The notes under the pieces are model-generated. The model did not search any database, had not been told where the DNA came from, and saw only the letters and a program-made list of their open reading frames with translations. From a virus, in UHGV virus genome UHGV-1372865: a stretch of 45,889 nt of DNA; one strand, given 5' to 3'. The translations under genes were made by a program, and so were the position numbers. Positions within the stretch are counted from its first letter, which is position 1. The number at the start of each line of letters is the position of its first letter. Of this stretch, positions 3,238 to 32,789 are shown one piece after another.

Positions 3238-3876
3238 ATGAAAAAATTTGAATTAACCAGCGAATTTGTAACTTTTTTAGGAAAGACGCTCTTTAGAATC
3301 AAGGCTCTTGTGTCGTTTGGTGATGTAGCAGAGGGAGAATTGGGCGGATTTATAGAAAGGGAGAATAATCTTGACCAGTCCGGTGACGCTTGGGTATACG
3401 GTGATGCTTGGGTATACGGTGACGCTCAGGTATGCGGTGACGCTCAGGTATTCGGTAACGCTCGGGTATACGGTGATGCTTGGGTATACGGTGACGCTCA
3501 GGTATGCGGTGATGCTCGGGTATACGGTGACGCTCGGGTATACGGTGACGCTCAGGTATGCGGTGACGCTCAGGTATTCGGTAACGCTTGGGTATGCGGT
3601 GACGCTCAGGTATGCGGTGACGCTCAGGTATTCGGTAACGCTTGGGTTCAAAACTGCCGTGATTATTCTGCTACAAGCTGCTTCGGATCGGAAAATAGGA
3701 CGACAACATTTTTCCGCACGAAAGACGGCGGAATCAGCGTGAGATGTGGATGTTTTTACGGAACACTGAGGGAATTTAGAGAAAAGGTGAAAGAACGACA
3801 CGGAGACAGTCGACTGGCAAAGGAATATTTGATGCTGGCAGATTTGATGGAGTTTAGATTGTCTAAGGATGAGTAG
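3238..3876 (+). CDS. Hexapeptide-repeat protein, probably a beta-helix: about 15 copies of [GN][DN]A[WQR]V[YCF], with a Cys-containing C-terminal domain
   Basis: GGAGAGAAAtgtaaATG RBS; the repeat is encoded by a near-perfect 18-bp tandem array. Confidence 0.7.
   Translation: MKKFELTSEFVTFLGKTLFRIKALVSFGDVAEGELGGFIERENNLDQSGDAWVYGDAWVYGDAQVCGDAQVFGNARVYGDAWVYGDAQVCGDARVYGDARVYGDAQVCGDAQVFGNAWVCGDAQVCGDAQVFGNAWVQNCRDYSATSCFGSENRTTTFFRTKDGGISVRCGCFYGTLREFREKVKERHGDSRLAKEYLMLADLMEFRLSKDE
3382..3647 (+). repeat. 18-bp tandem DNA repeat (ggtgacgctcaggtatgc and variants), about 15 units
   Basis: Read directly from the sequence; units differ only at 1-3 positions. Confidence 0.9.
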
Positions 3877-11858: not shown

Positions 11859-12103
11859 CCAGAGAGACTATGAAGCGCAGAAGGGAGACAGCAGACACCG
11901 TGAGAAAGATAGAAGCATACAAGATGGCAACGAGAAAGCCCTGTGAGACAGCTTTAAAGCAAAAGGGGCATAAAGCCTTTAAGTGCGACTTTAAAAGCCG
12001 CGAGAGGACGAATAAGGACGCTGTGGAGTACATAGCAGAGAAATACAACATAAAAGATCCTGTTCCGGGAGGTGATAGAGTTGGACAAGAACGTGATTTA
12101 TGA
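11855..12103 (+). CDS. Hypothetical basic protein
   Basis: 82 aa; ATGA overlap with the upstream gene. Confidence 0.45.
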   Translation: MTRETMKRRRETADTVRKIEAYKMATRKPCETALKQKGHKAFKCDFKSRERTNKDAVEYIAEKYNIKDPVPGGDRVGQERDL

Positions 12104-12488
12104 GTACATAGATGCAAAAGAATTGGTAAAAGAGACAGAGGAAGATATCAGGCGGCACAGAAGAAAGACGATCGTACAGGACAAGGTGACGGGCAGTAAT
12201 CCAGAGTTTCCGTATCAGCCACAGAGCTTTAATATCTCTGGATGTATAGAGAGCGCAGTGAACATAGACGAAGAGGAACGGTTGTTGGAAGAACGAAAGC
12301 TGAACGCAAAGCGGATTAAAGTAAAAGCAGAGCGAGTAATCAATAAAGCTCCGGTAAGGATGCAGCGGATTATCCGGTTCAAGGTGATGCAAGGACTGAC
12401 ATGGGATGAAGTAGCTGCGAAGATGAAAGGAAATTGCACAGGGGAAAGCGCAAGGAAAGAATTTCAGAGGTGGATGAAAGAAAAATAA
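12072..12488 (+). CDS. ArpU-family phage late-gene transcriptional activator (C-terminus resembles sigma-70 region 4)
   Basis: C-terminus PVRMQRIIRFKVMQGLTWDEVAAKMKGNCTGESARKEFQRWMKE looks like an HTH; it is the last gene before the tRNA/terS, the usual ArpU/RinA position. Start is GTG or TTG near 12072-12081. Confidence 0.55.
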   Translation: MIELDKNVIYEYIDAKELVKETEEDIRRHRRKTIVQDKVTGSNPEFPYQPQSFNISGCIESAVNIDEEERLLEERKLNAKRIKVKAERVINKAPVRMQRIIRFKVMQGLTWDEVAAKMKGNCTGESARKEFQRWMKEK

Positions 12489-12690: not shown

Positions 12691-12863
12691 GCGGCTGGTA
12701 GACGGCCCTTAAATGATTAAGCGCGCGATCGGCTTTGCATCTGATTGGTACCAATAGCAGGTATCCGCAGATCTGCAAAACAAACAAAAATAGATTCAGC
12801 AATCTATATTTAGTGTCAGTACCCGAGTGCGGATAGGGTAAAGGATGTCAGACGGCATCCTAC

Positions 12864-12936
12864 GGGTGTATAGCTCAGTTGGTAGAGCAATCGGCTGTTA
12901 ACCGATGTGTCGCAGGTTCGAGTCCTGCTATACCCG
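12864..12936 (+). tRNA. tRNA-Asn (anticodon GTT)
   Basis: Folded by hand: 7-bp acceptor GGGTGTA/TATACCC, D-arm GCTC-AGTTGGTA-GAGC, anticodon arm ATCGG-CTGTTAA-CCGAT, T-arm GCAGG-TTCGAGT-CCTGC, discriminator G; 73 nt. Confidence 0.9.
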
Positions 12937-13059
12937 TTGTGGACTACTGCAAGGTTCCTCCTTTTTTCTTATAAATTTTGATTGTGTTTTTGGTTATTTT
13001 GGTTTTTGTTGGCGTTATTAATTCTTTCAGCAGTAGTCCTAAATTCTTAGCATCCAGAG

Positions 13060-13557
13060 ATGGGTGCTTTTATTATGCTTAAAATTAACAGATTGGAAGG
13101 TGGTGAAGTGGCAGGTTATGATAACATAAAAGATCGTGGATTTGATAAACGAACAACGGGGGAACTACGAATAATTACTTCTAAAGGTGGTAAAGCAAGC
13201 GGCGAAGCAAGAAGAAGGAAAGCAAATTTTCGGAAAACGCTGAACATGCTGCTTACCGCCGAAATAGATAGTCCTGAATGGAAGCCGGTTCTGGAGTCAC
13301 TTGGTGTTGAGTGCACTCTGGAATCGGCTCTTTTGATGGCACAGATCAAAGAAGCGTTGGGCGGAAATACACAGGCAGCTACATTCGTAGCGAAGTATGC
13401 GGGGCAATCACCGGAACCGGATGAGAACAGACGCAACCGAGAAGCAGATACAGAATTGAAACGGGCAAACGCAGATAAGCTGAACCGAGATTGCAGTAGT
13501 GAAGATGAAACGGAAGGAGTAGAGATTATCAATGATGCAGACAAAGAAACAGGTTAG
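13060..13557 (+). CDS. Terminase small subunit (assigned by position)
   Basis: 165-aa basic/acidic protein immediately upstream of terL and overlapping it. Confidence 0.45.
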   Translation: MGAFIMLKINRLEGGEVAGYDNIKDRGFDKRTTGELRIITSKGGKASGEARRRKANFRKTLNMLLTAEIDSPEWKPVLESLGVECTLESALLMAQIKEALGGNTQAATFVAKYAGQSPEPDENRRNREADTELKRANADKLNRDCSSEDETEGVEIINDADKETG

Positions 13558-16277: not shown

Positions 16278-17915
16278 ATGCAGCCAAAGGAAATGGAGCA
16301 CCTGCCACTGCAGCTTGAAAAGATGTTTCTTGAATTACAGAACCGCATTATGAGAGATGTAGTCAGGAGGATTAAAAAGACAGGTGGAATTACATCTACA
16401 GCGGACTATCAGTTGAACAGAATACAGATCATTGGAAATTCTACGGAGTTCATTGAATCGGAAATCAAACGTCTTTCAGGGCTTACTGATCCGGAGCTAT
16501 GGGAGATTTATGATACTGTAATCGAAAAGGATTACACCAGGGCGAAAGAAATTTACGAACAGGTAAATGCCAATTTTACACCTTATGAAGATAATGAGCA
16601 GATGCAGACATGGGCGAAAGCAATTCTAAGCCAGACAAAACATGAAATCCAGAATATCACACGATCGATGGGATTTGCTTTGGATTACGGAGGAAAGAAA
16701 GTATTCACTCCATTTTCGGAGTATTATCAGAAGTATCTTGATCGTGCATGTATGGATATTGTAACCGGAGCATTCGACTACAATACCGTTCTCAGGCGTG
16801 TAGTAAAGGAAATGACAGCTAGTGGAATACGGACAGTAAATTATGCGTCAGGATATGGAAATCGGGCCCCTGTGGCGGTTAGACGAGCTGTCATGACGGG
16901 GGTGCATCAACTTGCTGCACAGATTAATGAGCAGGTGGCAAAGGATTTGGGAACAGATACCTACGAAGTAACGTGGCATGCCGGGCATAGACCTTCTCAC
17001 TGGTGGGGAGGGAATGTGTACACAAAGCAGCAGTTAATCTCGATCTGTCGTTTGGGAGAGGTAGATGGTCTGTGCGGAGCTAACTGTAAGCATAGTTACT
17101 TCGCGTTCGTAGACGGTGTGTCTGTCAGAACGTACACACCGGAACAATTGAGGGAAATGGAAGCAAATGAACAGGTCGCAAGGTCTTATCAGGGAAAATC
17201 ATATAACGCCTATGAAGCTCAGCAGCGGCAGAGAGCACTTGAAACCAGAATGAGAAAGCAGAGAAGTGACATTGATCTTCTAAAAAAAGGAAAAGCCAGC
17301 CAGTTGGACATACAGGCAGCCCAAGCAAAGTATCTGAACACACTCCGGGAATACCAGGGGTTTTCTAAAAAGATGGAGCTTCCAGAGCAGATGCAGAGAG
17401 TGTATATGGATGGGCTTGGAAGAGTGTTGCTGGGAAGAATATTTGAGTCAAGAATTTCTAATATAAAAAAGAAGACAGCAGAAAAAATATTCGATGTAGA
17501 GATTACAAAAGAAATGGATACAGTACTCGCAGCTAACTTATACAAAAATCTTAATAAGTCAAATGTTGGAAAGACAGTTCTTGATTTTATTAAAACGAAT
17601 CATATTTCCGTTAACGTATATTATAGCAGAAATACAATTTCAGAAACGGGACTGGAAGGACTGTATGGATCATGTATTGGAAATCATATCTATATCAATG
17701 GGGTGGAAACACAAAGCATACGGAAGACGGCGGAAACGATTATCCATGAAGCAACGCATATCCGATTGGATATAGGTGGAGATCAACACGCAGAAGCTGT
17801 TTGTGACTATTTTGCTGAATTACATACGAAAGGTAAATTGACGGGACAAGACATTAGGAATATAATAAAATCAGTAAAAGGAAGATATTCAGATCGTGAA
17901 TGGAGGCTAAAGTAA
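16278..17915 (+). CDS. Minor head / head-morphogenesis protein (MuF / SPP1 gp7 family) with a C-terminal extension of about 140 aa containing an HExxH motif
   Basis: Position after the portal; GGTGTGAGGAtATG; C-terminal ..ETIIHEATHIRLD.. motif. Confidence 0.7.
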   Translation: MQPKEMEHLPLQLEKMFLELQNRIMRDVVRRIKKTGGITSTADYQLNRIQIIGNSTEFIESEIKRLSGLTDPELWEIYDTVIEKDYTRAKEIYEQVNANFTPYEDNEQMQTWAKAILSQTKHEIQNITRSMGFALDYGGKKVFTPFSEYYQKYLDRACMDIVTGAFDYNTVLRRVVKEMTASGIRTVNYASGYGNRAPVAVRRAVMTGVHQLAAQINEQVAKDLGTDTYEVTWHAGHRPSHWWGGNVYTKQQLISICRLGEVDGLCGANCKHSYFAFVDGVSVRTYTPEQLREMEANEQVARSYQGKSYNAYEAQQRQRALETRMRKQRSDIDLLKKGKASQLDIQAAQAKYLNTLREYQGFSKKMELPEQMQRVYMDGLGRVLLGRIFESRISNIKKKTAEKIFDVEITKEMDTVLAANLYKNLNKSNVGKTVLDFIKTNHISVNVYYSRNTISETGLEGLYGSCIGNHIYINGVETQSIRKTAETIIHEATHIRLDIGGDQHAEAVCDYFAELHTKGKLTGQDIRNIIKSVKGRYSDREWRLK

Positions 17916-18091
17916 TGACACCAAAAGAAATTGGAATGATGATAAAGGCGTTACGGGATGGAAAAGAAGTAATTTGTCCGGAATGTAAAACAGGTAAAAT
18001 CATTACACCTTATAATCCAAAAACAAGTACATATTTCAATTGTACAACCTGTAATTTTAAGATTCATATGGAACCGGCGGAAAAGAGATGA
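17915..18091 (+). CDS. Small zinc-ribbon protein (58 aa)
   Basis: GGAGGCTAAAGTAatg overlapping the MuF stop; CPECKTG..CTTCNF. Confidence 0.45.
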   Translation: MTPKEIGMMIKALRDGKEVICPECKTGKIITPYNPKTSTYFNCTTCNFKIHMEPAEKR

Positions 18092-18127
18092 TACCATTCA
18101 TTCTTAATTGAGTGAGTGGTATTTTTA
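18091..18127 (+). terminator. Rho-independent terminator
   Basis: ATACCA..TGGTAT stem followed by TTTTTA. Confidence 0.5.
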
Positions 18128-18345
18128 TGCCAATTTCAAAAAATAAAAACAATAAATTTAGCATCTATCCAGTGTGGTAGGTGCTATTTTTATACGCTGC
18201 CCTCAATTTTGGGGACAGTATTTGTCCGATCAACCCTCAAGACATTTAAACTGCGGGAAAATATCCCCTGTGGCATGGGAGAATAACTGCCACGGCCAGC
18301 GGAGACACCGCGATAATAAACAGTGGTCAAAGAAAGGAATAAAGA

Positions 18346-18968
18346 TGCAGTTAAGAGACGTATTAGGAGAAGAGCTTTTCGGACAGGTAGATGCAAAGAT
18401 TCAGGAGCATAACAACGGAATCGAGGATAAGCTGAAGCATGTCAGATTCGTTGATTTATCAGATGGCGGCTATATCAGCAAGGAAAAGTACCAGAGCCTT
18501 GAGACGAGAGCCAATGGACTGGAGACGCAGCTCGGCGAAGCAAACACTACGATTAAGTCTTACAAGGACATGGATATTGACGGAATCAAGCAGTCTGCTG
18601 CTGACTGGGAGAAAAAGTACAACGAAGACACAAAAGCACTAAATGATCAGATTGAATCAGACCGAAAGATGTTTGCAGCAGAGAGGTTTTTGGACACGCA
18701 GAAGATTAAATCTCCTTTATCCAGAAAGACAATCTTACATGAGTTTCTGGAACAGAAGATGGAGTTTAAAGACGGTGCTTTTGTTGGTGCAGATGAGTAC
18801 ATGAAAGGCGTCAAAGAGAAATATCCGGATGAGTTCGAACAGGAAGAACCGGACGGTGGAAAAAAGACATGGGTAAGAGGTACTCATGGAACCTACAGAC
18901 CGGAGACAAAATCCGAAGAAGAGGCTTATCTCACAAGGAAATACGGAAACAACAAATACGCGAAATAG
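18346..18968 (+). CDS. Scaffolding protein
   Basis: AAGAAAGGAAtaaagATG; coiled-coil, charged, 207 aa; immediately upstream of the major capsid gene. Confidence 0.6.
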
Positions 18969-18987: not shown

Positions 18988-19854
18988 ATGGAATATGGTG
19001 GATATAACGTAAGCGAAAAATACAGTTCAATCGTTGCACCAAATTTTTATTTTGATGCAATTTTTCAGCCGGGGATGACATTTAATGATCAGTATCAGGG
19101 TGATGCTGAAGGAGCGGGAGCAGTAAAAGTGTTCCGTTTAGCTGCCAAGGCGGCAAAAGACCCAAAACAGCCGGCATCCGACTTCGAACACGGAAAAGCA
19201 GACAATGATCTGATTCCAGTGTTAATGAATAACCTGCAGCAGGAATCAACGAAGATTTATAACGTACAGGCAAGCGCTGTGCCGTTTGACATGGCTGATG
19301 CGCATCTTTCCCAGTCTACACAGGTTTGCAAAGAGGGATGGCAGCAGTCCGGTCTTGCATGTCTTGCACATGAAGGAACGGCAATGCAAGATACAGAAGC
19401 AATTACCGCTTCCAATATCATCAATAAGGTGATTGCAGGAAGAAAAACAATCCGTAAGCAGAAAGCGTCTGCGAATGTGGTTATGGCATCTGTTGAGACC
19501 TACAGTACGATGCTGGAAGTTGCAGGAGATAAATTCATTCCTGTTAAGAATGATGAGATCATCCGCACCGGACAGATGGGATATTACCTTGGAATGTTGT
19601 GGGTAGAGTGTAATATGCTCGACTTGACAGCAGCTGCAAAATACTACGATTATGCAGGAAGTCTACAGACAGAAGATCTGTCAAAAGTAGAGTATATCAT
19701 GTATGACTGGAGAGGACTGCATATCATTGACCTGTTATCTATGGCAAGACTGAAAGACTCTGAGAACTTCAACGGAACTCTTGCACAGGTGGAAATCTGT
19801 ACCGGATACCGTCTTGGAGATAAGAACTACGCAGTTGTAAAAAAAAAGGCCTAG
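18988..19854 (+). CDS. Major capsid protein
   Basis: AAGGAGAAtaaaagagtATG; 288 aa; position after the scaffold. Confidence 0.6.
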   Translation: MEYGGYNVSEKYSSIVAPNFYFDAIFQPGMTFNDQYQGDAEGAGAVKVFRLAAKAAKDPKQPASDFEHGKADNDLIPVLMNNLQQESTKIYNVQASAVPFDMADAHLSQSTQVCKEGWQQSGLACLAHEGTAMQDTEAITASNIINKVIAGRKTIRKQKASANVVMASVETYSTMLEVAGDKFIPVKNDEIIRTGQMGYYLGMLWVECNMLDLTAAAKYYDYAGSLQTEDLSKVEYIMYDWRGLHIIDLLSMARLKDSENFNGTLAQVEICTGYRLGDKNYAVVKKKA

Positions 19855-19937: not shown

Positions 19938-20267
19938 ATGGCATATACACCAACTACATGGAATAATGATGACGTTATTACAGCAGAGAAACTGAATAAG
20001 TTAGAGCAGGGCGTAAAGAATGAGCAGGTTGGACCAGCAGGACCAGCAGGACCAGCAGGAGCAGTAGGACCAGCAGGACCAGCAGGACCAGCAGGACCAG
20101 CAGGACCAAGTTACACTCTTCCAGCGGCGAACAAAACAACGCTGGGCGGTGTGAAACAGATGGCTTTGATTGCAGATTTGTCCACAGAAACAGCAACTGA
20201 CCTGAAAGATAAAATCAATGCGATTCTTGAGGGGATGAAAAAACAGGGTATCATGGCGAATTCGTAA
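19938..20267 (+). CDS. Small collagen-like (GPA)n protein, possibly head decoration or fibre
   Basis: GGAGGTAAtaataATG; ..GPAGPAGPAGAVGPAGPAGPAGPAGP.. encoded by a 9-bp tandem repeat (ggaccagca) at about 20030-20105. Confidence 0.55.
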   Translation: MAYTPTTWNNDDVITAEKLNKLEQGVKNEQVGPAGPAGPAGAVGPAGPAGPAGPAGPSYTLPAANKTTLGGVKQMALIADLSTETATDLKDKINAILEGMKKQGIMANS

Positions 20268-22453: not shown

Positions 22454-22807
22454 ATGATTATCAATGGAGTAGAATTGGAATTCAACCTGTATGATCTGGA
22501 GAATCCAGAGCTGAAAGAGCGATATGGAGCTGAATTGGAGAAGATGAAACACGTTGCAGAAGAGCTGCCAGAAGGAACAGAGCTGGAACAGAATAGATTT
22601 CTGTGCGGCAGAGTGAAGCAGATGTTTGATTCTGTATTCGGAGAGGGTACAGGTAATCGTGTGTGTGGAAAAGGAAATGATTTGCTTGCTTGTATGACAG
22701 TTTATGAGCAGTTGGTCACAGAGCAGATCAGACAGGACAATCAGTACAATGAGATTATGGGGAGATTGGAAATGCTATCAAAGGGAAATGCTCTTGTAGA
22801 AAAATGA
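22454..22807 (+). CDS. Tail assembly chaperone (Gp14-like)
   Basis: AAAAGGAAGGAGCgcaagaacATG; 117 aa; immediately upstream of the Gp15-like gene. Confidence 0.5.
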   Translation: MIINGVELEFNLYDLENPELKERYGAELEKMKHVAEELPEGTELEQNRFLCGRVKQMFDSVFGEGTGNRVCGKGNDLLACMTVYEQLVTEQIRQDNQYNEIMGRLEMLSKGNALVEK

Positions 22808-23430
22808 TGAATCTCTTAATAGAAAAATTTCCAGAGTTTTTGATCGTGAATGGTGTGGAGTGTCCTGTAAAATGGGATTTCCGCACTGTTTTAAAATGCA
22901 ATGAAATCATAGAAAGTGCAGAAGAATTGACGGGAGATTCCTTGCTGAAAGTGTTGCTGCTGTTCTACAGAGATTGTGATTATTTCACAGAAGAACACGT
23001 GGATCAGATGTTTTGGTTCTTTTCCTGTGGCAAGGAGCAGTCAAAGAAGAAATTCCCGCGGAAGATCGCAGGGGTCAATGATAAGCAACCGTTTGACTTT
23101 CAAGAGGATGCAGGACTGATCTATGCCGGTTTCATCCAGCAGTACGGAATTGACTTGCAGGCAGAAGAGATGCACTGGTGGAAGTTTATGCTGCTTCTGG
23201 AGAATCTGGGAGAAGATACCAGGCTGTCAAAGGTTATTGAGTACCGTACAATGGACGTGTCGAATAAGAACCTCTCAAAAGAGGAAAGAGAGTTCTACCG
23301 GGCAATGCAGAAGTATTACGGTCTGGAACAGGCACCCGCTATGGATGATCGGACAAGACAGATTGAAGATGCGCTTCTCAATGGCGGCGATGTGAGTGAA
23401 TTGCTTCGTACGAAAAACGTACGAACGTAG
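22804..23430 (+). CDS. Tail assembly chaperone (phage Gp15 family)
   Basis: MMNLLIEKFPEFLIVNGVECPVKWDFRTVLK.. resembles the start of the Gp15 family; separate ORF with an ATGA overlap. Confidence 0.55.
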   Translation: MMNLLIEKFPEFLIVNGVECPVKWDFRTVLKCNEIIESAEELTGDSLLKVLLLFYRDCDYFTEEHVDQMFWFFSCGKEQSKKKFPRKIAGVNDKQPFDFQEDAGLIYAGFIQQYGIDLQAEEMHWWKFMLLLENLGEDTRLSKVIEYRTMDVSNKNLSKEEREFYRAMQKYYGLEQAPAMDDRTRQIEDALLNGGDVSELLRTKNVRT

Positions 23431-23501
23431 AGAGTGTGTGTAAAGGTGTGGCGAAGTGCTGCACCTTATTTTAATACTTAAAAAAAACAGATAGTGTCAA
23501 A

Positions 23502-24191
23502 TTGACACTGACGAGATTCAGCGAAAGGATTGAAAATATGTTAGTAGAAGTAAAAAGAGTGAATAAAATGGAAATGACAGTTGTATCAAGCTTGGATGTA
23601 TCAGATACATTTGACAAGAATCATCGAGATGTAATGGAGTCTATAAGGAATATAGAGTCTACTATAAGTACAGCGGAATTTTCCGCTCTATTTTATTTGG
23701 ATTCTTACAAGGCATCCAATGGAAAAATGAATCCCATGTATCTTATGACAAGAGACGGCTTTACTCTTTTGGCAATGGGTTACACGGGGGCGAAAGCTAT
23801 GAAGTTCAAACTTGCCTACATCAAGCAATTCAATGCTATGGAAAAAATCCTACAAGGCAAACTTGTTGAACGAGAAAAAGGAATTGCTGTCAGGCAATCA
23901 CTTACAAAAGCACTGCAACAGTCCACAGAGAATGAGCGGATGCACGGACATGCTTACTCTACTTACACCAACTGTATTTATAAAGTATTGTTCGGAGTAA
24001 ATGCAAAGCAACTTCGTGAGAATCTTGGAATTGGAAAGAAGGACAATTTGAGAGACTATCTTTCAGCAGAAGATTTAAAAGTAATTCAGTCAATGGAATG
24101 TCTGGTAAGTGGACTTGTAGACTGTGGATGGGGATACGATCAAATCAAGGAGTTTATACAGAAAAATAATACAATGCAGATTGCAGCGTAA
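23502..24191 (+). CDS. Rha-family phage regulatory protein / antirepressor
   Basis: ..MTRDGFTLLAMGYTGAKAMKFKLAYIKQFNAMEK.. is the pRha signature. The true start may be internal (23538 MLVEV.. or 23571 MEMTVV). Confidence 0.7.
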   Translation: MTLTRFSERIENMLVEVKRVNKMEMTVVSSLDVSDTFDKNHRDVMESIRNIESTISTAEFSALFYLDSYKASNGKMNPMYLMTRDGFTLLAMGYTGAKAMKFKLAYIKQFNAMEKILQGKLVEREKGIAVRQSLTKALQQSTENERMHGHAYSTYTNCIYKVLFGVNAKQLRENLGIGKKDNLRDYLSAEDLKVIQSMECLVSGLVDCGWGYDQIKEFIQKNNTMQIAA

Positions 24192-24545
24192 CCCCCCCTC
24201 TCAAATTGAGCGGGGGTTCAAACTGAGCATCCGTTAAAGTGGTGGTCACAGACTGAGACCCCCTGTAATTGAAGTTGGTGCGTCCATTCTTGGACTCTCC
24301 TGTTTCGCCCACAAGTGGGCGAAGAAAATAGAGCTTGTCTATTTGGGATTCGGATCGTCTTTTATGACGAACCGTATATTTGTACCGACGAAATTCGTCA
24401 TCACATGACGGAGCAAGGATGCGCTTTCCCCAGCTGTGGGGAAGGATAATCCATAATCGGATTCTCCATTGTCAGAAGTGGCAACACATTATTTTGGGAT
24501 GAGTTCAAGATTGAGCCGATTGAATTTCCATATTCCATTCCATCC

Positions 24546-24574
24546 TTGCGATTCCACAACCCTCACGGTATAAT
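24546..24574 (+). promoter_or_regulatory. Sigma-A-type promoter driving the lipoprotein gene
   Basis: TTGCGA, 17-nt spacer, TATAAT; followed by GGAGGAAGGTTATG. Confidence 0.6.
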
Positions 24575-24611
24575 GAGTATGTGGTAAAGCGTATAGGGTA
24601 GGAGGAAGGTT

Positions 24612-25718
24612 ATGAAGAGAGTACTAAGTGTCTTGCTGGCAGCAGTTCTTTGTGTGGGGATGCTGACAGGATGTGGGGAGAAGAAAGATGCTGGTGAGGT
24701 GGAGAGCAAAAAGGAAGAAGAAAGCGAAATTGAGTTACCTTTTGACAGAACTTTTGATGATGCGCACGAAGTATTGGCCACACTACAAGCAGGAGGAAAA
24801 TGCAACTTTACATCCTCTGGTGTAAGTACTTTGGATGATGGTGGAAAATTAGAAACATTGGTTGATAGCTCTAATGGAAGTTTTATGACGTTAATTGGGA
24901 ATGAAAACAGCAACATAACAATAGTATCTACCACAGCAAAGGATGAAACGACTTTTGTTGGCGTAGGGATTATGGCGTTAATGATAACAGATGTATTATC
25001 TGCTGATTTGGGAGATTTTTTGACATACTTATCAGCAGAAAATTTAAAGAATATGGGAACAGATATCGGAGACTCAAAGCATGAAGTGATAGAAGGTGTT
25101 ACTTACTTTCTGACTAAATCTGGAACAGATCCAGATTATGAGTATAGACTGCAAGTAGAAAGAGACGATGAAACAAAAGAAGATTACGAGCAATACTTGA
25201 AGGAAAAAGCGATAGCAGATCAGTTTAAAGCAACTCCAGAGAGCGAAGTAGAGGAGCCGGTTGGATATCAAACCGGAATGTACAAAATAGGTACAGACAT
25301 GCCGGCGGGAGAATATCTTATCACATCTTCTGGCGGCTATTATGCAGTGACAGCCGATTCCAGCGGAAGTTTGGAATCAATCATCAGCAATGACAATTAT
25401 AGGAATAGAGCCTATGTTACAGTACAAGACGGACAGTATTTCCAGTTTGACGGAACGGCAGTTCCCGTCAGTGAGGCGGCTGCATTCACTCCGGTTAATG
25501 GTACATATCCAGATGGAATGTATCTTGTAGGAAAAGATATTCCGGCAGGAGAGTATAAAGTATCAGCTGCGAATGGCGGCTATTATGAAGTTACCGCTAA
25601 CTCAACAGGAGATTTAGGAACGATAATTGCAAATGACAACTTCGAAGGAGAAGTGTATTTGACAGTACAGGATGGACAGTATTTAAAATTAAGCAGAGCG
25701 CAGATCGTTGCACAGTAA
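24612..25718 (+). CDS. Secreted lipoprotein with two tandem C-terminal repeats of about 55 aa
   Basis: Signal peptide plus lipobox MKRVLSVLLAAVLCVGMLTGC; repeats G.Y.[IV]G.D[MI]PAGEY..S..GGYY.VTA.S.G.L..II.NDN....Y[VL]TVQDGQY... Confidence 0.75.
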   Translation: MKRVLSVLLAAVLCVGMLTGCGEKKDAGEVESKKEEESEIELPFDRTFDDAHEVLATLQAGGKCNFTSSGVSTLDDGGKLETLVDSSNGSFMTLIGNENSNITIVSTTAKDETTFVGVGIMALMITDVLSADLGDFLTYLSAENLKNMGTDIGDSKHEVIEGVTYFLTKSGTDPDYEYRLQVERDDETKEDYEQYLKEKAIADQFKATPESEVEEPVGYQTGMYKIGTDMPAGEYLITSSGGYYAVTADSSGSLESIISNDNYRNRAYVTVQDGQYFQFDGTAVPVSEAAAFTPVNGTYPDGMYLVGKDIPAGEYKVSAANGGYYEVTANSTGDLGTIIANDNFEGEVYLTVQDGQYLKLSRAQIVAQ

Positions 25719-25741
25719 GTATAGAAAAAGCACACAATGAC

Positions 25742-26458
25742 TTGATAAAAGATATTCGTAGATATTGCAAACAACTTTCACTGGGGAAAATTCCTCAGTC
25801 AGATTTTTTCACAGAATCAACTTATGTAAATGGTAGAGGAAAAGAGTATCCTTGCTACAATGTCACTAAGAAAGGTTGTGAATTTATCGCTCACAAGTTG
25901 ACCGGATTAAAAGGTACAGAGTTCACAGCGAAGTACATCAACCGTTTTCACGATATGGAAGATACGATTCGAGAAGGTATTCCGTTAAAGAAGAAACCTA
26001 CTCACAAAGAAAAACTCCCATCTGTCAACCAGATGGTTAAGAACATCAAAGGTGCTCTCAATGATGCAGGAGTAGACTCTAAGTACATAGCTGCTGAAAT
26101 TATCCGCATTTATTCAGACAACGGGTATCCAGTGAAAGTGCCGCTGATTTCAGAAGTTCCGGTCTTGTGGGATTGCACCACGATGGCGAAAGAGTTTGGT
26201 ATTTTATCGGAAAGTGGCAGACCACACGATAAGGCAGTAAGTGCTATCATTCAGAAGTTGGATGTTTCAGAGGCCGAAATTGTAAAGACAGCTTATAGCA
26301 GGAATGGACATGACGGCGTTACCATTCAATACAAAGATTCCGTTTTCCAGAAAGTAAAAGAATGGCTGGAGGAAAATGGGTATCCAACACTCATTGAGCA
26401 TCAGTTATCAAATGGTAATACAAATAAATGCAAAGTTGTTTATCAGGAGGTGGCGTAA
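25742..26458 (+). CDS. Rha-like antirepressor with a TTG start; its C-terminal domain resembles that of the BRO-N antirepressor at 1922
   Basis: ..YNVTKKGCEFIAHKLTGLKGTEFTAKYINRFHDMED (pRha core); C-terminal GRPHDKAVSAIIQKLDVSE compared with GKPADKAVNEIIRRLDLSE in the 1922 protein. Confidence 0.55.
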   Translation: MIKDIRRYCKQLSLGKIPQSDFFTESTYVNGRGKEYPCYNVTKKGCEFIAHKLTGLKGTEFTAKYINRFHDMEDTIREGIPLKKKPTHKEKLPSVNQMVKNIKGALNDAGVDSKYIAAEIIRIYSDNGYPVKVPLISEVPVLWDCTTMAKEFGILSESGRPHDKAVSAIIQKLDVSEAEIVKTAYSRNGHDGVTIQYKDSVFQKVKEWLEENGYPTLIEHQLSNGNTNKCKVVYQEVA

Positions 26459-26459
26459 G

Positions 26460-26879
26460 ATGAATTTATATGAAAAAATTAAGAGAGAAAACTTGATGAT
26501 CCCTGTTGCATTTAGAATGAAATTTGAACAGGCAGAAGATTTGTTGAACCATGCTCTCGGCGACTTTGAGCTTGCGTTATCATCATTTAGATTTGGCTAT
26601 ATGCAAGGGCAGAGAGCAGAAAAAGCGAACAATACTAAAGCGGAAAATAATCAGTTTCAGAGCCTCTTGTCGCAGTTAAGACCGGAAGATTATAGAATTA
26701 AACGCCAGATAGAAGCAATCTTATACGGGTATTTGGATAAACGTGACAGACTTCCAGATACAGAGCAGTGTGATCGTAAGAAATCCATTGTGAAGATTGT
26801 GGAGAATATGGAAAATGAAGAGTGTTTGGAACTTGTAGAACGGTTCGCTAAAAATCTGGCAAGTAGTGAGGTGGCGTAA
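26460..26879 (+). CDS. Hypothetical protein
   Basis: GGAGGTGGCGtaagATG; 139 aa. Confidence 0.45.
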   Translation: MNLYEKIKRENLMIPVAFRMKFEQAEDLLNHALGDFELALSSFRFGYMQGQRAEKANNTKAENNQFQSLLSQLRPEDYRIKRQIEAILYGYLDKRDRLPDTEQCDRKKSIVKIVENMENEECLELVERFAKNLASSEVA

Positions 26880-27102
26880 TGAAAGAGAATAGAGAGAAAT
26901 TAAGCACAGCGGCTAAATATAAGAAGAACTTCATTATCAGCAAGCTGAAAGAAATGGACGAATGTCATATAAATCGCGTATATGCCTTTATGCAAGGCTG
27001 TACTGGAAATCCGGTCAAATAACTAAATACAGTAATCAGGGCATCTATCAGAAATGGTAGGTGCTCTTTTTATACAAATTTTTAACACGAGGTGGTGAGT
27101 AA

Positions 27103-30100
27103 ATGGCAGATGGAAAAGTTGTAATTGAAACAGATCTGGATTCTTCCGGGATAGAAAAAGGACTTTCAAAGCTTGGGAGTATAACAGCAAAAGGGATGAA
27201 AGCGGCAACGGTAGCGATCACGGGAACTGCAGCAGCACTTGGTGGAGTTGCAGCAGCGGCAATCAAGGTGGGTTCTGATTTTGAATCTCAGATGTCTAGA
27301 GTTAAGGCTATCTCCGGAGCAACAGGAGAAGAGTTTGAGCAATTAAAGGAACAGGCAATGCAGTTAGGTGCTGATACCTCGTTTTCTGCCAGTCAGGCAG
27401 CAGAGGGAATGGAGAATCTGGCAGCAGCTGGTTTTACTACATCCGAGATTATGAGTGCAATGCCGGGACTTTTAAATCTGGCAGCGGCATCCGGTGAAGA
27501 TCTGGCGAGCAGTTCGGATATTGCAGCATCAACCTTAAGAGGATTTGGACTGGCGGCATCCGATGCAGCACACGTTGCGGATGTTCTGGCGGCGAATGCA
27601 AACCGTACGAATTCCTCTGTAGCAGATACCGGAGAGGCAATGAAGTATATAGCTCCTCTTGCAAGGGCAGCAGGACTTAGTTTGGAAGAGACAGCAGCGG
27701 CAATCGGAATCATGGCGAATGCCGGAGTGAATGGCAGTCAGGCTGGTACTTCTTTAAGAGGAGCGTTATCACGGCTTTCAAAGCCAACGAAAGACATGTC
27801 TGAGGCTATGGATGAACTTGGAATTTCCTTCTACGATTCCAACGGGAAAATGAAATCCCTGACGGAACAGGTTGGAATGCTCAGACAGGCAACAGAGGGA
27901 ATGACGGATGAGCAGAAAAATAATTATCTGGTCACCCTGTATGGACAAGAAGCATTGTCCGGTATGCTGGCATTGATCAATGAGGGAGAAGGTTCTCTCG
28001 GAGAACTGACGAATGCCTATAAGAACTGTGATGGTGCAGCTCAAAAGGCAGCAGAAACAATGCAGGACAATCTATCTGGTGCATTAGAGCAGCTTGGTGG
28101 ATCAGCAGAAACATTAGGTCTGGCGTTTTACAACAGTGTAGCGGACAATCTGAAAAATGCAGCAAAGACAGCAACAGAAAGCATCAACAATATCACAGAT
28201 TCTTTCAATAACGGTGGTCTGAATGAAGCGATCCAGACAGCAGGTGATGAATTTGCGAATCTTGCAATAGAAGCGGCATCCCATGCCCCAGAAATGGTGG
28301 ATACAGCAGTGGATTTCATAGAATCCTTTGCTTCTGGAATTGCTTCGAACAAAGGAAGGATTCTCGGTGCGGCCGGAGAGATGGCGGAGTCTATGGCATC
28401 CGGTCTGGCAGAGCTGTTACCATCCAAACTGCAAGAGCCGGTTGAGGATGCAATTGATGCAGTGGCAGAGTCATTGAGTGATGGTGGATTAAAAGAAGCA
28501 GCAGAGACAGCAGCGGACACATTGGATAATGTAGTGGATGCTGTTGGAAATCTGGCTGATAAAGCGCTTCCGCCATTGACAAAGGCACTGGACTTTGCAG
28601 GAGAGAATCTGGACTTGATCGCAGCATCAGCAACGGCAGCTTTTACTGCATTTAAAGGATATAAAGTTGTCAATGAAACAACATCTATATTAAAAAAAGG
28701 TGTGAAAACATGGAAGACCGCTTCTGCAGCAGTGGATGCTTACTATGCTGCACAGCTTCTGGCTATGGAAAGTGGTGTTGCAACAAACGCTACACTTACA
28801 GCGGGGCAAGCAGTTGTTGGCATGTTTACAGGAAAGGTGAATTTAGCCACAAAAGCACAAACTCTTTGGAACGTTGCTATGAAAGCGAATCCGATTGGTC
28901 TTGTGATTTCTGCGGTAGCAGCTCTGGCAGCAGGTCTTGGTGTTTATGCTTTGACGCAGAAAGAAGCGGAGTCTGCTACAGATAAAGCCAATAAAAAACT
29001 GGCAGAGCAGGCAGAAGCAATCAGAGAAACTCAGGCTGCAAGACAAGATGAAGTTGCCGGAATTCAGACGCAGTTTGGTTATTATCAGCAACTATGGGAT
29101 GAGTTACAGGGAATTGTTGACCAAAATGGGAAGATAAAGGAAGGATATGAGGAACGTGCAGCCTTTATTACATCCACATTATCCGAAGCACTTGGCGTAG
29201 ATATTGAAACGACAGATGGAGTAATACAGAAGTATGGTGAGTTAACGCAATCCATAGATCAAGTTATTCAAAAGAAAAAAGCAGAGGCAATATTGTCCGC
29301 TTATGAGGATGATTATACTACAGCGATAAAGAATCAGACACAAGCAGCAAAAGAAGTTTCTCGCACATTTGACGATTATTCTGAGGCACTAAGAGCATCC
29401 GAAGAAGCAACAAGAAAGTTGGAAGATGCCACTGCGTCAATGACTACAGAACAGGCAGCAGGTTCTTTTGAAATCATGCGTCTTCAACAAGCACAGATGG
29501 AAGCTGATGCAGAATTACTTGAAGCGGAAAAGGCATTTGATAATGCGAAAACTGCTTCCAATGAGTATTTGACTACGATATCAAATTACGAAGCCGCAAT
29601 GGGGGCAGTTGAATCCGGAAGTGAAAATGCCGCTCTTTCTGTTTTGGCATTGGCAAATGATATGAAACGCGCTGGGGAAGCGAGCGAAGAAGCTTTAAAA
29701 GAACAAGCTGAAAGTTTTCTGCAAAGTTATGACGATATGCGTGCAGCAGCGGCGGAAAAAGGTTCTGGAGTAACGAATGAAATGGTGACTCAAGCTCGTA
29801 TCATGTGGCTCATGGCTCAAATTGAATACGAAAAGGGATCTACTAATAATATCGCTTCGATTGAAGCTTATCAAAATGAAATCAATCAATTACTCGGAAA
29901 TTCAGGAAATCCAGAAGCAGCAGCCCAAGAAGCGAAAGAAACCACAGAAGCTGCAACGAACGCTTTACAAGAGGGAAAAGAACCAGTGAAGCAAGCAGCG
30001 AAAGACGCTATCGAGGGTGGCGTCAGTGAGGGAGCGGCAGAGGCAGATACTTCTACGGTTCCTGCTCAAAAAGGAAAAGAGGCGGCGGATAGTACTGCGA

Positions 30101-31320
30101 ATTCTGTAAACAGTGGAAAAACTGCGATCAATGAAGCAGCAAAAAGCGCTGTGAATGAGATCAATACAGGTGCAAGTACTACAGATACGACAACGGTTCC
30201 TTCCAGCAAAGGAAGTGAGGCAACACAGTCTCTGATTGATGCACTGTATGCGAATTCCAATGCCGTATTGATGGCAGCGGCTTCCTTAGGCGGTCAGATT
30301 CCACAAGGGTTGAATGGCATGGATATGTTGTCAGCTACGGCAGGATTTGGAAACAACGTAGGTTTTGGACTATCATCCTCTTTGAGTGGCCAAGCCCCGG
30401 TTGTGCAGGCGGCTGCATCAGGATTGGAAAATGCGGCTTTATCAGGACTTTCATCTGCAAATGTTTCGGGACAAGCGCAGGCAATGGGAAGTCAGATTGC
30501 AAACGCGCTTGCAAATGGAATTGTTGGTGGTTCTGGATCAGTAAATGCGGCGGCATCTACATTAGGCGGCAATGCAGCGGTGGCATTGTCAAATGTCAAG
30601 CTTTCCGAAAAAGGAAAACAGGAAGGAAAGAAACTTGGTGATGGTTTAAAGAGCGGGATTGATTCTGGCAAGAAAAATGCGGAGTCATCTGCCAAAAGTC
30701 TTGGAGACGGAGCTGTATCCGGTTTAAGTAGCGTTGGAATGAGAAGCAAAGCGTACGATCAAGGATTGAATTTTTCCTATGGTCTTGCAAATGGTATTTC
30801 GGCTGGAAGCTCCGCGGCTATTTCCGCAGCTATCGCAGTTGCTTCTTCTGCACTGGCAGCAGCGAAAAGGGAACTTGATGAGCGTTCTCCATCCAAAAAG
30901 ACAAGGGAATTTGGTCAATTCTTCAGTAAAGGTCTGGCGTTGGGTATTAAGGATGAAGAAAAGTCAGTTGTAAAATCTTCCCGGAATATTTCAAACGCAG
31001 CACTGGAATCTATTGACCTATCTACTGTTTCAGCACGGATGCGAGAGGTTATGGCTTTTAATGCATCCAGAGTAGCGAATCGTCCAGCAACATCTGTTAT
31101 GCAGTACAAGATGGATAACGCAGAAATCAGAAATCTTCAGCAACAGAATCAAGCGATTCTGAATGCAGTGGCAGGACTTTCTGATCTGGCAAAACGTCCG
31201 ATCGAAGTAAGCACAACACTGAATGGAAGAGAATTGATTAAAGAAACAGCAGCTCAAATGCTGACAGAACAGCAAAGAATTACAGATTTTAAGAAATTAC
31301 TGAAAGGAGAACGTACATGA
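27103..31320 (+). CDS. Tail tape measure protein (TP901-type core)
   Basis: 1405 aa, Ala/Ser/Gly-rich; ..SQAAEGMENLAAAGFTTSEIMSAMPGLLNLAAASGEDLASSSDIAASTLRGFGL.. is the tape-measure core motif; GAGGTGGTGAGtaaATG. Confidence 0.9.
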   Translation: MADGKVVIETDLDSSGIEKGLSKLGSITAKGMKAATVAITGTAAALGGVAAAAIKVGSDFESQMSRVKAISGATGEEFEQLKEQAMQLGADTSFSASQAAEGMENLAAAGFTTSEIMSAMPGLLNLAAASGEDLASSSDIAASTLRGFGLAASDAAHVADVLAANANRTNSSVADTGEAMKYIAPLARAAGLSLEETAAAIGIMANAGVNGSQAGTSLRGALSRLSKPTKDMSEAMDELGISFYDSNGKMKSLTEQVGMLRQATEGMTDEQKNNYLVTLYGQEALSGMLALINEGEGSLGELTNAYKNCDGAAQKAAETMQDNLSGALEQLGGSAETLGLAFYNSVADNLKNAAKTATESINNITDSFNNGGLNEAIQTAGDEFANLAIEAASHAPEMVDTAVDFIESFASGIASNKGRILGAAGEMAESMASGLAELLPSKLQEPVEDAIDAVAESLSDGGLKEAAETAADTLDNVVDAVGNLADKALPPLTKALDFAGENLDLIAASATAAFTAFKGYKVVNETTSILKKGVKTWKTASAAVDAYYAAQLLAMESGVATNATLTAGQAVVGMFTGKVNLATKAQTLWNVAMKANPIGLVISAVAALAAGLGVYALTQKEAESATDKANKKLAEQAEAIRETQAARQDEVAGIQTQFGYYQQLWDELQGIVDQNGKIKEGYEERAAFITSTLSEALGVDIETTDGVIQKYGELTQSIDQVIQKKKAEAILSAYEDDYTTAIKNQTQAAKEVSRTFDDYSEALRASEEATRKLEDATASMTTEQAAGSFEIMRLQQAQMEADAELLEAEKAFDNAKTASNEYLTTISNYEAAMGAVESGSENAALSVLALANDMKRAGEASEEALKEQAESFLQSYDDMRAAAAEKGSGVTNEMVTQARIMWLMAQIEYEKGSTNNIASIEAYQNEINQLLGNSGNPEAAAQEAKETTEAATNALQEGKEPVKQAAKDAIEGGVSEGAAEADTSTVPAQKGKEAADSTANSVNSGKTAINEAAKSAVNEINTGASTTDTTTVPSSKGSEATQSLIDALYANSNAVLMAAASLGGQIPQGLNGMDMLSATAGFGNNVGFGLSSSLSGQAPVVQAAASGLENAALSGLSSANVSGQAQAMGSQIANALANGIVGGSGSVNAAASTLGGNAAVALSNVKLSEKGKQEGKKLGDGLKSGIDSGKKNAESSAKSLGDGAVSGLSSVGMRSKAYDQGLNFSYGLANGISAGSSAAISAAIAVASSALAAAKRELDERSPSKKTREFGQFFSKGLALGIKDEEKSVVKSSRNISNAALESIDLSTVSARMREVMAFNASRVANRPATSVMQYKMDNAEIRNLQQQNQAILNAVAGLSDLAKRPIEVSTTLNGRELIKETAAQMLTEQQRITDFKKLLKGERT

Positions 31321-32789
31321 CACTTTCTGTGAAGTTCAATGACATCGAATTAGGAAAGTACATCGAAGTACTACAGGGATTTACACCGTTTGTCGGTGCT
31401 GACTGGAATCCATCGTTTGTGAAGGCAGAAAAACAGAATGGAAGTGATTTTGCTTACACGTCATACGAGAACAAACAAATTGTGATGCCGTTTACGATTG
31501 AGGGTAATCTGGAAGAGAAGTACGATGCTTTACAGAAAGCATTAAAAGTAGATGAACCAAAAAAGTTAGTGTTTGGAAATGTTCCGAACAAATGCTTTTA
31601 TGCGATTCCAAGTGGTACTTTAGAATTCAGCGAAGAAACAGAATTTCTGGGAGAGGGAACAATCACATGGTTAATCCCTGACGGTGTAGCATACTCCACC
31701 GCAGAATTCGACTTCTATGGCGTCCAGAATAACGGCTACCAGACCATTACCATCCAAAACAACGGCACCGAATGGGCAGACGTGGACTACGAGATCACGC
31801 ACCAACACGAAAACGGATTTATCGGACTTGTGAGCCAGTATGGAGTGATCCAGCTCGGAAAAGAGGAGGAAGCAGACGGAGAGAACTACGAAGCGTCCGA
31901 AGAACTGTTTAACGGTTACGGCTTGTTTCAAGACGATCATGGAACGTCTTACCAAAATCCGGAAAACACCACACGGGGAACACTCGAAGTACGGAACATT
32001 GCTGGACACAATGTGATGGCGCTAAAAGGTGGACAAGCAACATCCGGATACTGGAATGGTGGAATGAAAACACTTACTATCCCGGTGGACAGTGAGGGCA
32101 GACGTGGAGCGAAGAACTTTTACTGTTACACCCAGCACTGGTTTGAAACCGGATTAATGGGGCAGACAGGAGCGCAGACCATTGCATTTCTGACAGGAGA
32201 TAACAAGGTGATCTGCGCCATGTCTATTAACAAGAGTGATACGGTTGGCAATACGGCGCATGTGGACTGGTTTGCCCCTCAAAACAAGAAAATTAAGACA
32301 CTGGATTTCCAGCCGACATCCTACGAGGATAACCCGTTTAATTTAAAAATGGGCGGCGGACACAATGACTTTTTAAAAGAGGGTGACAAGTTGCGTATTT
32401 TCTGGTACGGGAAGTATTACCACTTTACTATCCCAGAGATCAAAGATATGGAATGCGAGAAAATCCAGATCTGGATCGGGCAGTGGGGAAGTAGAGATCT
32501 TGGAAATCAGCTGGTTACGCACAATTATTTAAAAAGTATCTGGTTCCGTAAGGATAACGTGGAAAAATACCGAGATGTGCCGAACCGGTACCGTGCCGGA
32601 GATGTGGTGTCTATAGACGGGGAGAGTACGAAGGTCTACGTTAATGGGATGGTGGCTAAGGGAGATGAGATTAATGGATCCAATTATCCAAAAGTGCCAC
32701 CCGGAACAACAGAAGTGCAGTTCTGCTATTCTTCCTTTTCTTCTCCACCGCCACAGATTAAAGCGAAAATACGGGAGGTGTATTTATAG
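31317..32789 (+). CDS. Distal tail protein (Dit), enlarged to 490 aa
   Basis: ATGA overlap with the tape measure; sits in the conserved TMP-Dit-Tal order. Confidence 0.55.
   Translation: MTLSVKFNDIELGKYIEVLQGFTPFVGADWNPSFVKAEKQNGSDFAYTSYENKQIVMPFTIEGNLEEKYDALQKALKVDEPKKLVFGNVPNKCFYAIPSGTLEFSEETEFLGEGTITWLIPDGVAYSTAEFDFYGVQNNGYQTITIQNNGTEWADVDYEITHQHENGFIGLVSQYGVIQLGKEEEADGENYEASEELFNGYGLFQDDHGTSYQNPENTTRGTLEVRNIAGHNVMALKGGQATSGYWNGGMKTLTIPVDSEGRRGAKNFYCYTQHWFETGLMGQTGAQTIAFLTGDNKVICAMSINKSDTVGNTAHVDWFAPQNKKIKTLDFQPTSYEDNPFNLKMGGGHNDFLKEGDKLRIFWYGKYYHFTIPEIKDMECEKIQIWIGQWGSRDLGNQLVTHNYLKSIWFRKDNVEKYRDVPNRYRAGDVVSIDGESTKVYVNGMVAKGDEINGSNYPKVPPGTTEVQFCYSSFSSPPPQIKAKIREVYL

Follow-up and report, generated by a model that had tools for sequence, protein, structure and literature searches.

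Accessory transcription units with a promoter and a terminator of their own reportedly lie inside late operons of lambdoid and other tailed phages, the moron concept of Juhala and Hendrix. The modular-evolution idea of Susskind and Botstein holds that conserved boundary or linker sequences mark module junctions, as reported in lambdoid phages, and in phage lambda the PR'-tR' arrangement, with Q, provides the promoter-proximal terminator of an antiterminated late operon. In SPP1, terminators delimit the late gene clusters, and morons are found between gene 7 and the scaffold gene 11 (PMC6316719). Late regulators of the Ltr/ArpU type have been described as promoter activators (PMC3753634). Here we analysed the virus genome UHGV-1372865, a stretch of 45,889 nt (the window), in which a short repeated element lies ahead of the scaffold gene and again ahead of the tape-measure protein (TMP) gene. 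An earlier annotation made from the letters alone (the sequence-only reading) had noticed this repeat and favoured a late promoter or ArpU-like activator site. We find that the copies are hairpins belonging to a nearly sequence-invariant family of predicted terminators in Bacillota phages and prophages, mainly those of Lachnospiraceae. We consider it probable that they are intrinsic terminators and that, at late-module junctions, they make up the invariable 3' end of accessory cassettes (morons) that can be exchanged.

The window contains two exact matches to the pattern GCATCTATC-N6-GGTAGGTGCT-N-TTTTTATAC, each of them on the + strand (18161-18195 and 27041-27075), whereas 100 dinucleotide-preserving shuffles of the window contained none. 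The differences between the two copies comprise five of the six loop bases and one base 3' of the stem. On the 5' side of the repeat, a weaker likeness extends the pair to 58 nt (18138-18195 versus 27018-27075, 74% identity). About 30 nt ahead of the probable start of terS, at 13049-13078, there is a shorter relative, AGCATCCAGAGATGGGTGCT-TTTATTATGC. The hairpins are the following.

18159-18195, + strand: copy 1 stem-loop, UAGCAUCUAUC-CAGUGU-GGUAGGUGCUA, then UUUUUAUAC
27038-27075, + strand: copy 2 stem-loop, AGGGCAUCUAUCA-GAAA-UGGUAGGUGCUCU, then UUUUAUAC
13049-13078, + strand: hairpin of the shorter relative, AGCAUCCA-GAGA-UGGGUGCU, then UUUAUUAUGC

The repeat and its position relative to late genes, as given by the sequence-only reading, were borne out, and its preferred function was not. 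The coordinates hold; the identity is 29 of 35 bases (83%) across the pattern, or 29 of 37 (78%) across the 37 bases originally outlined, rather than about 85%. The count of two is right for the exact pattern, to which the shorter relative has to be added. Both copies do stand just upstream of major late genes, copy 1 ending 148 nt before the scaffold ATG (18345) and copy 2 27 nt before the TMP ATG (27103), and both do follow an insertion or another terminator: a 63-residue open reading frame (ORF) and a separate terminator-like hairpin ('term A') in the case of copy 1, a 3.5-kb cassette in the case of copy 2.

The two halves of the repeat are complementary, GCAUCUAUC pairing with GGUAGGUGC over nine pairs that include two G-U pairs. 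In copy 1 the core arms are 18161-18169 and 18176-18184, with the G-U pairs at arm positions 4 and 8; in copy 2 they are 27041-27049 and 27056-27064. Flanking A-U and G-C pairs lengthen the stem to 11 pairs in copy 1 (loop of 6) and to 13 pairs in copy 2, and a T run follows directly 3' of the stem in both (UUUUUAUAC and UUUUAUAC, respectively). The fold is specific to the + strand: copy 1 reached -17.6 kcal/mol (z = -3.85) on this strand versus -10.4 kcal/mol (z = -1.39) on the other, and copy 2 -20.5 kcal/mol (z = -6.81) versus -6.5 kcal/mol. The complementary strand folds poorly because the G-U pairs turn into C-A mismatches. The shorter relative, which has the same outer stem (GCAUC/GGUGC) and tail as the wider hairpin family, folded at -11.5 kcal/mol (z = -2.09). 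In a terminator scan, both copies were among the best sites of the late region, copy 2 being the top terminator-like match.

Hairpin and T run together have the build of an intrinsic (Rho-independent) terminator that works in one direction. The transcribed strand carries a stable, G-C-containing stem-loop (5-14 bp, loop of 3-8 nt), a U-rich tract follows immediately 3' of the stem in both copies, and the element lies downstream of the end of a co-directional gene, the exception being terS contexts with a divergent upstream gene. In an Rfam search over the window, only the tRNA reached its gathering score and no family matched the hairpin element; at E values up to 10 over 18040-18360, Rfam returned sub-threshold matches only, unrelated in kind. 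A literature search by the sequence of the element gave no relevant match.

Public collections were scanned for the element; the samples are not random, and all counts from these scans are lower bounds. With any 6-nt loop, the exact stem was found in at least 118 viral contig stretches and in at least 120 bacterial species (the collection holds one genome per species). Among the matches listed, the species were mostly Lachnospiraceae (Blautia, Roseburia, Dorea, Lachnospira, Ruminococcus and others), with a minority of Oscillospiraceae, Erysipelotrichaceae and Bacilli, and bacterial assemblies carried one or two copies. An uncultured Ruminococcus sp. (UMGS669) has two contigs with near-identical versions of the window's two sites. 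When matches were dropped if either flank resembled that of another match, at least 76 independent contexts remained. Conserved across these 76 are the A at -1, the stem, T at +1 to +4 and at +6/+7, and TGC at +9 to +11, each of the positions +1 to +4 being T in 67-76 contexts. The loop is biased towards AGAAAT, in which a GAAA loop is closed by an A-U pair. Conservation ends at -2 and +11, and nothing farther out is conserved. As a control, we scanned for the stems of two other window terminators, 'term A' and the hairpin at 23443-23476, with an equal number of specified bases. They occurred in 12 and 16 viral contigs, respectively, nearly all of them closely related to the window; the dispersal of the element therefore far exceeds that of an ordinary terminator. 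A scan of a plasmid collection yielded no real matches, so the element is not of a plasmid-borne kind.

Diverged forms of the hairpin extend to phages of Streptococcus, Terrisporobacter and Lactobacillus. In GenBank, related hairpins precede the TMP gene of Terrisporobacter phage TPDSL_ph1, follow the large terminase gene and two small ORFs in Ruminococcus phage NatCom_3870, and lie between a minor capsid gene plus small ORF and the scaffold/capsid genes in Streptococcus phage Javan157. The Javan157 hairpin differs in its inner stem, with the outer stem and the tail TTTTCTTATGC unchanged. A megablast search with the head region of the window against GenBank phages returned no match.

Sequence variation in the stem preserves pairing. 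The 15 stem variants, 16 sequences in the alignment with the window copies, are all fully paired in an alignment that was pre-filtered for pairing. In three pairs both partners have changed: pair 1 has A-U in place of G-C, pair 7 G-C in place of A-U, and pair 9 U-A in place of C-G. At the two G-U positions, C-G or U-A occurs as an alternative, and loop length ranges from 3 to 8 nt. Pairing is likewise kept in variants from TMP-selected loci, which were chosen regardless of the hairpin (L369, L377, L388, L396, L423 and L429). The wider family has in common the outer stem GCAUC/GGUGC and the tail UUUnUUAUGC, with variable inner stems and often a GAAA loop. A scan by the 3' tail alone (GGTGCTTTNTTATGC) retrieved generic terminators from many environments and was uninformative on stem variation.

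Another hairpin with a T run behind it, GCTCGGAGAAATCCGGGC, is absent from the window and was found in 98 viral stretches, representing at least 47 contexts unrelated to one another (examples are L008:4938-4955, L104:881-898 and L588 about 2536-2553). Frequently it directly adjoins the 3' side of a GCATC...GGTGC hairpin, the two making up a conserved double terminator. This hairpin being likewise dispersed, wide dispersal is a property of several terminator modules. In two viral contigs (L011 ~1900-1930, - strand, and L014 ~113-150), the exact hairpin of the window is followed within 6 nt by an apparent tRNA gene, GGGATATAGTTTAACGGTAGAA..., and in a single case, a Clostridia metagenome-assembled genome (L313 ~3320-3369), the hairpin adjoins the CRISPR repeat-like sequence GTTTCAATCCACGCGCCCGCAC.

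With respect to neighbouring genes, a co-directional ORF ends no more than 150 nt upstream of the hairpin in 204 of 242 matches, typically 0-30 nt away. The upstream ORFs form 68 clusters, and their cargo includes RelE and ParE toxins, Fic, a Schlafen/AlbA_2 ATPase, AAA_14/DUF4143 and Rha/Ant anti-repressors. The genes downstream are of fewer kinds: TMP (82 matches), scaffold (18) and Mom-like (12), together with terS of three unrelated families, endolysin and serine recombinase. Near-identical TMP genes follow at least three different upstream ORFs, each joined at TAAATACAGTAATCAGR and then the hairpin, and one upstream ORF was found joined to differing sequences immediately 3' of the T run. 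The hairpin thus has a breakpoint on either side.

The association with insertions was examined at loci whose only selection criterion was a likeness to the TMP over its N-terminal 400 residues; 57 of these loci had the gene start visible. Upstream of the TMP gene, 28 of them carry the family hairpin (~35 nt upstream), 5 another terminator and 24 none. Where the hairpin is present, the end of the Gp15-like chaperone gene lies at least 865 nt before the TMP gene if a chaperone was matched, and otherwise more than 3 kb before it; in the window the distance is 3.67 kb. Where it is absent, the chaperone gene ends 12-47 nt before the TMP gene in 15 of the 19 loci with a chaperone match, and its stop codon abuts the TMP ribosome-binding site. 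Close TMP relatives without a cassette are thus also without the hairpin, which is therefore dispensable for TMP expression. Presence or absence between the same two conserved genes of relatives, as is characteristic of morons, was accordingly found at the chaperone-TMP junction. At the scaffold site, most phages bearing the scaffold leader described below are without a detectable homologue of minor capsid protein 2, which limits the comparison of hairpins and cassettes there. In some terS contexts (L029, L035 and L090, for example), the next gene upstream is encoded on the other strand and the hairpin stands ~28 nt before the terS start. Structure, strand specificity, dispersal, covariation and the link with insertions are direct observations of this study.

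The genes and other features that surround the hairpins in the window are as follows.

12072-12488, + strand: transcriptional regulator, last early gene (phrog_36, E = 9.6e-12)
12863-12937: tRNA-Asn gene, ~110 nt upstream of the shorter relative
16278-17915, + strand: minor capsid protein 2 gene, upstream of copy 1
17900-18091, + strand: 63-residue ORF without a family match, between the minor capsid protein 2 and scaffold genes
18091-18126, + strand: 'term A', a separate terminator-like hairpin (-19.1 kcal/mol, z = -5.56)
18345-18968, + strand: scaffold protein gene (PF06810)
18988-19854, + strand: major head protein gene, next after the scaffold gene
22804-23430, + strand: Gp15-type tail chaperone gene, left of the inserted cassette
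23443-23476, + strand: terminator-like hairpin directly after the chaperone gene, left edge of the cassette
23502-27022, + strand: accessory cassette of 3.5 kb between tail chaperone and TMP genes, closed by copy 2
27103-31320, + strand: TMP gene (the representative of its homologous downstream cluster matches PHROG tape-measure families)

The 63-residue ORF is a variable cassette, relatives having another, 64-residue ORF at the equivalent place (upstream clusters U1 and U10); 'term A' lies directly 3' of its stop codon and 35 nt 5' of copy 1. The 3.5-kb cassette encodes a Rha-like regulator (23502-24191), a 368-residue protein, a second Rha-like protein (25742-26458) and ORFs of 167 and 47 residues (the latter at 26879-27022). 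The shorter relative sits between the tRNA-Asn gene and the probable terS start (GTG at 13108).

Compared with the intrinsic terminators of Bacillota, the hairpins have the same 9-13 bp stem with G-C base pairs at the bottom, the same tetraloop-type loop (GAAA in copy 2) and interrupted U tract, the same location on the sense strand a few nucleotides past a stop codon, and the same compensatory evolution of the stem. They differ from ordinary terminators, which are not conserved in sequence between unrelated loci, in that one and the same stem recurs across at least 76 unrelated contexts and at least 120 species, and in that they immediately precede essential late genes. With morons they share the presence or absence of a cassette at one junction among relatives, a cargo of toxins, Fic proteins and anti-repressors, and a factor-independent terminator at the 3' end; the difference is that here the terminator is conserved and the cargo is not, many unrelated cassettes sharing an ending unit of ~37-58 nt. 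As to a promoter at the 5' end of the cassette, a further attribute of morons, a palindrome at 23494-23508 (below) might point to one, and consensus promoter matches did not rise above the level of shuffles. Like boundary or linker sequences, the element is a short conserved non-coding stretch exactly where genome similarity breaks, with differing modules on either side; unlike them, it is a functional-looking terminator hairpin, and its spread takes in a whole bacterial family and reaches beyond it. The terS-context terminator between a regulatory region and the first late gene, with more terminators inside the late operon, recalls lambda PR'-tR', but neither a Q-like protein nor a qut-like site nor an RNA for processive antitermination was identified here, and the late regulator of this phage, in contrast to Q, belongs to the Ltr/ArpU-type activators. 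SPP1 has a matching insertion point, located between its gene 7 (minor capsid) and its gene 11 (scaffold), and the hairpins would act in the same way as the terminators that set off late clusters and moron segments in that phage (PMC6316719).

From these observations we infer termination, a need for read-through and a mode of spread. Copy 1 would close the small-ORF cassette between the minor capsid and scaffold genes, copy 2 the Rha-type regulator cassette between tail chaperone and TMP genes, and the shorter relative the region from the regulator gene and tRNA to terS. The hairpins would stop transcripts arriving from the cassette or from farther upstream and probably supply a stable transcript 3' end. 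As the TMP and terS starts lie only 27-30 nt past a hairpin, essential late transcription must cross it; it might do so by partial read-through or in the form of a terminator-resistant late transcription complex. The likeness of the copies would reflect common descent and spread by recombination at a neutral non-coding junction rather than a shared regulator site.

Several points weigh against the interpretation as cassette-closing terminators. Termination itself is predicted from the sequence. The hairpin of divergent terS contexts such as L029, L035 and L090 must lie in a late-operon leader, where it has no cassette gene of the same direction to terminate and may instead be subject to regulation. 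The exact 18-nt stem in at least 76 unrelated contexts exceeds the needs of terminator function, and a strong terminator ahead of essential genes needs an additional read-through mechanism. Finally, the pre-filtering of the 16-sequence stem alignment weakens its pairing statistics. A dedicated signal common to hundreds of Lachnospiraceae phages, going beyond passive termination, strikes us as an unlikely alternative; the late transcription machinery or an RNA-binding protein would recognise it and so restrict passage over cassette borders to late, phage-programmed transcription, or else it would act as a self-propagating linker for cassette swaps by phage recombinases.

How far the other explanations can accommodate the data differs from case to case. 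A late promoter or a DNA site for an ArpU/Ltr-like activator, as the sequence-only reading had proposed, would fit the location upstream of late gene blocks, the presence of a regulator gene of PHROG family 36 with likeness to sigma region 4 (12072-12488, the 'ArpU-like' gene of that reading) and a tail, TTATAC/TTATGC, that is loosely -10-like. The sigma-70 region 4 likeness of this regulator is weak, well below curated cut-offs, and it has no Pfam match. The element is instead a + strand hairpin of terminator type with a T run, and the scan found no sigma-70-type -35/-10 pair, 16-18 nt apart, overlapping 18138-18200 or 27018-27100. Characterised Ltr/ArpU sites are made up of three direct repeats of 7 nt, which come immediately behind the regulator gene and ahead of the terS promoter (PMC3753634), whereas the element is an inverted repeat without internal direct repeats, located 5.7 and 14.6 kb downstream of the regulator-like gene. 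The spacing of the arms varies (loops of 3-8 nt, stems of 7-13 bp) and pairing is kept nonetheless; arms that co-vary while the loop changes in length fit a folded strand, not a two-box DNA site with fixed spacing, and G-U pairs would be meaningless in double-stranded DNA. The hairpin also follows toxin genes and precedes tRNA and Mom-like genes, among other non-late contexts, and is missing upstream of TMP at 24 of the 57 homologous loci. Taken together, a promoter or activator site seems hardly credible.

Recognition of the hairpin as RNA by a phage or host protein or a modified RNA polymerase, be it for terminator-specific antitermination or for processing or stabilisation of late mRNA at module borders, comes close to a minor option of the sequence-only reading (an anti-termination or RNA-processing signal) and would account for a stem that is invariant in at least 76 unrelated contexts, far beyond the two control terminators, and for G-U pairs, which restrict the fold to one of the two strands. 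It would also suit hairpins placed right before terS, scaffold and TMP genes without space for a downstream promoter, and in the operon leader after a divergent regulatory region in the terS contexts. Yet inner stems vary freely with compensation and Watson-Crick pairs replace G-U in variants, many close relatives without the hairpin must still express their late genes, and the unrelated GCTCGGAGAAATCCGGGC hairpin is equally dispersed, pointing to a general property of terminator modules and not to one ligand. No candidate binding protein was identified, and we doubt this explanation. As for a small mobile or recombination-active DNA hairpin, of the REP/REPIN, integron attC or IS200/IS605-end type, moved by a dedicated recombinase, the flanks are indeed breakpoints (a given left flank can be joined to various right flanks, and a given right flank to various left ones), the conserved unit is discrete (~37-58 nt, with sharp limits at -2 and +11), and its position at cassette 3' ends is like that of attC sites. 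Against this stand one or two copies per assembly among the matches listed, without high-copy families; the lack of a visible target-site duplication, the A at -1 belonging to the stem; neighbouring genes that do not consistently include a transposase, RAYT or integron integrase; the lack of plasmid matches; and a coding-strand T run that is always present and would be superfluous for a DNA recombination site. Neither the many copies or cassette arrays nor the associated enzyme that define REP/REPIN and attC elements were seen, which makes such an origin very unlikely. We therefore retain intrinsic terminators at cassette ends as the favoured explanation.

Next to copy 1, between the hairpin and the scaffold start, the window holds a second conserved RNA structure.

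18226-18344, + strand: conserved structured leader of the scaffold gene

The order of elements in this leader is a sequence-conserved block (CCGA..TTTAAACTG), an H-type pseudoknot, a helix P4 enclosing a hairpin P3, and the ribosome-binding site. The pseudoknot consists of S1 (18265-18267 with 18277-18279) and S2 (18270-18275 with 18288-18293), P4 of 18294-18298 with 18324-18328, and P3 of 18299-18302 with 18308-18311. The leader is conserved across loci whose scaffold proteins share just 28-78% identity, and a pattern scan of viral contigs returned at least 30 distinct versions. All 36 distinct versions examined have the pseudoknot, in which the loop closed by the 3-bp S1 pairs with a stretch beyond an A-rich linker and thereby forms the S2 of 5-6 bp; P4 with P3 and then the ribosome-binding site come after it. 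A covariance model built from 21 sequences had its sole window match at 18226-18347 (117.5 bits) and also recovered members outside the seed, including L465. Of the alignment cells, 92.4% were paired versus 72.5% in shuffles, with 0 of 500 shuffles reaching the observed value, and 15 of 18 pairs were altered on both sides; the alignment was fitted to the nested helices S2, P3 and P4, so that their pair counts lean towards structure. Shifting the 3' partners by 1-3 columns left 28-42% of cells paired, and S1, which is outside the covariance model, was 94.7% paired. In most lineages a terminator-like hairpin of varying sequence precedes the leader, a place taken in the window by copy 1.

Rfam gave no match to the leader. 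With the comparison to known families made against Rfam, the scaffold pseudoknot leader is apparently a candidate new cis-regulatory RNA. By analogy with the autoregulation of the P22 scaffold, we speculate that it could be a translational operator of the scaffold gene. The pseudoknot operator of T4 gene 32 offers another analogy (mentioned in PMC10690425), and a survey of structured RNAs in phages lists roughly 10,000 candidates (PMC10690425).

The 5' block of the leader, CCGAAAAAGGCTTATGACGTTTAAACTG (18226-18253; for example L467:6206-6235), is conserved in sequence and without a pairing partner; candidate readings are those of a promoter, an upstream ORF and a binding site. Read as a promoter (TTGTCC-19 nt-TAAACT), its motif occurs once in the window and has poor hexamers. 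In most lineages the block reads as a short upstream ORF (ATG ACG TTT AAA CTG ..) that stops at or in the pseudoknot, but the window lineage and L465 have AAG in place of ATG, and we rejected an upstream ORF as a general feature of the leader. A -1 frameshift at UUUAAAC plus pseudoknot was likewise discarded: the leader is non-coding in most lineages, the L467 type has stops in the scaffold frame, and the spacer is 13-14 nt. An N-terminally extended scaffold protein starting at GTG 18174 was dismissed, since the frame is open in the window alone.

Further observations concern the cassette and the remainder of the window. Just 5' of the first gene of the chaperone-TMP cassette lies the operator-like palindrome GTGTCAA-A-TTGACAC (23494-23508), which suggests that the cassette may have its own regulated promoter. 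A palindrome resembling it, ACCACGTATATACGTGGT, precedes the hairpin in some of the terS contexts, L029 and L022 among them. The 368-residue cassette protein (24612-25718) has a C-terminal domain of the Rv1352/Rv1906c type and a weak lipoprotein-like N-terminus, and may be the product of a surface or exclusion-type cargo gene. The stretch from the tRNA-Asn gene to the shorter relative contains a perfect inverted repeat of 10 bp (GGACTACTGC at 12941-12950 and GCAGTAGTCC at 13030-13039), which encloses a T-rich spacer of 79 nt and folds at -21.6 kcal/mol; possible explanations include an insertion scar, an att-like site and an RNA stem. Fourteen tandem 18-nt units at 3327-3686, inside a 212-residue early-region ORF (3238-3876), could be iteron-like origin repeats or encode a repetitive protein. 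Runs of 9-nt repeats at 20019-20117 (in a 109-residue head-region ORF, 19938-20267) and at 34224-36932 (in a 1653-residue ORF, 32789-37750) possibly encode collagen-like Gly-X-Y repeats.

Should the hairpin after all be a dedicated signal of Lachnospiraceae phages, it would offer a testable handle on how gut prophages insulate and exchange cargo genes. The terminators ahead of terS, scaffold and TMP genes raise the question of whether Ltr/ArpU-type regulators only activate a promoter or also confer terminator resistance. If the hairpins are terminators that close exchangeable cassettes, they would explain how accessory genes, among them toxins, anti-repressors and Fic, can reside inside the essential late operon of gut prophages without driving or disturbing it, and would tell where cassette exchange occurs. 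The GCATCTATC..GGTAGGTGC hairpin would then serve as a tag for the cassette ends of Lachnospiraceae prophages and for the annotation of their cargo in metagenomes.

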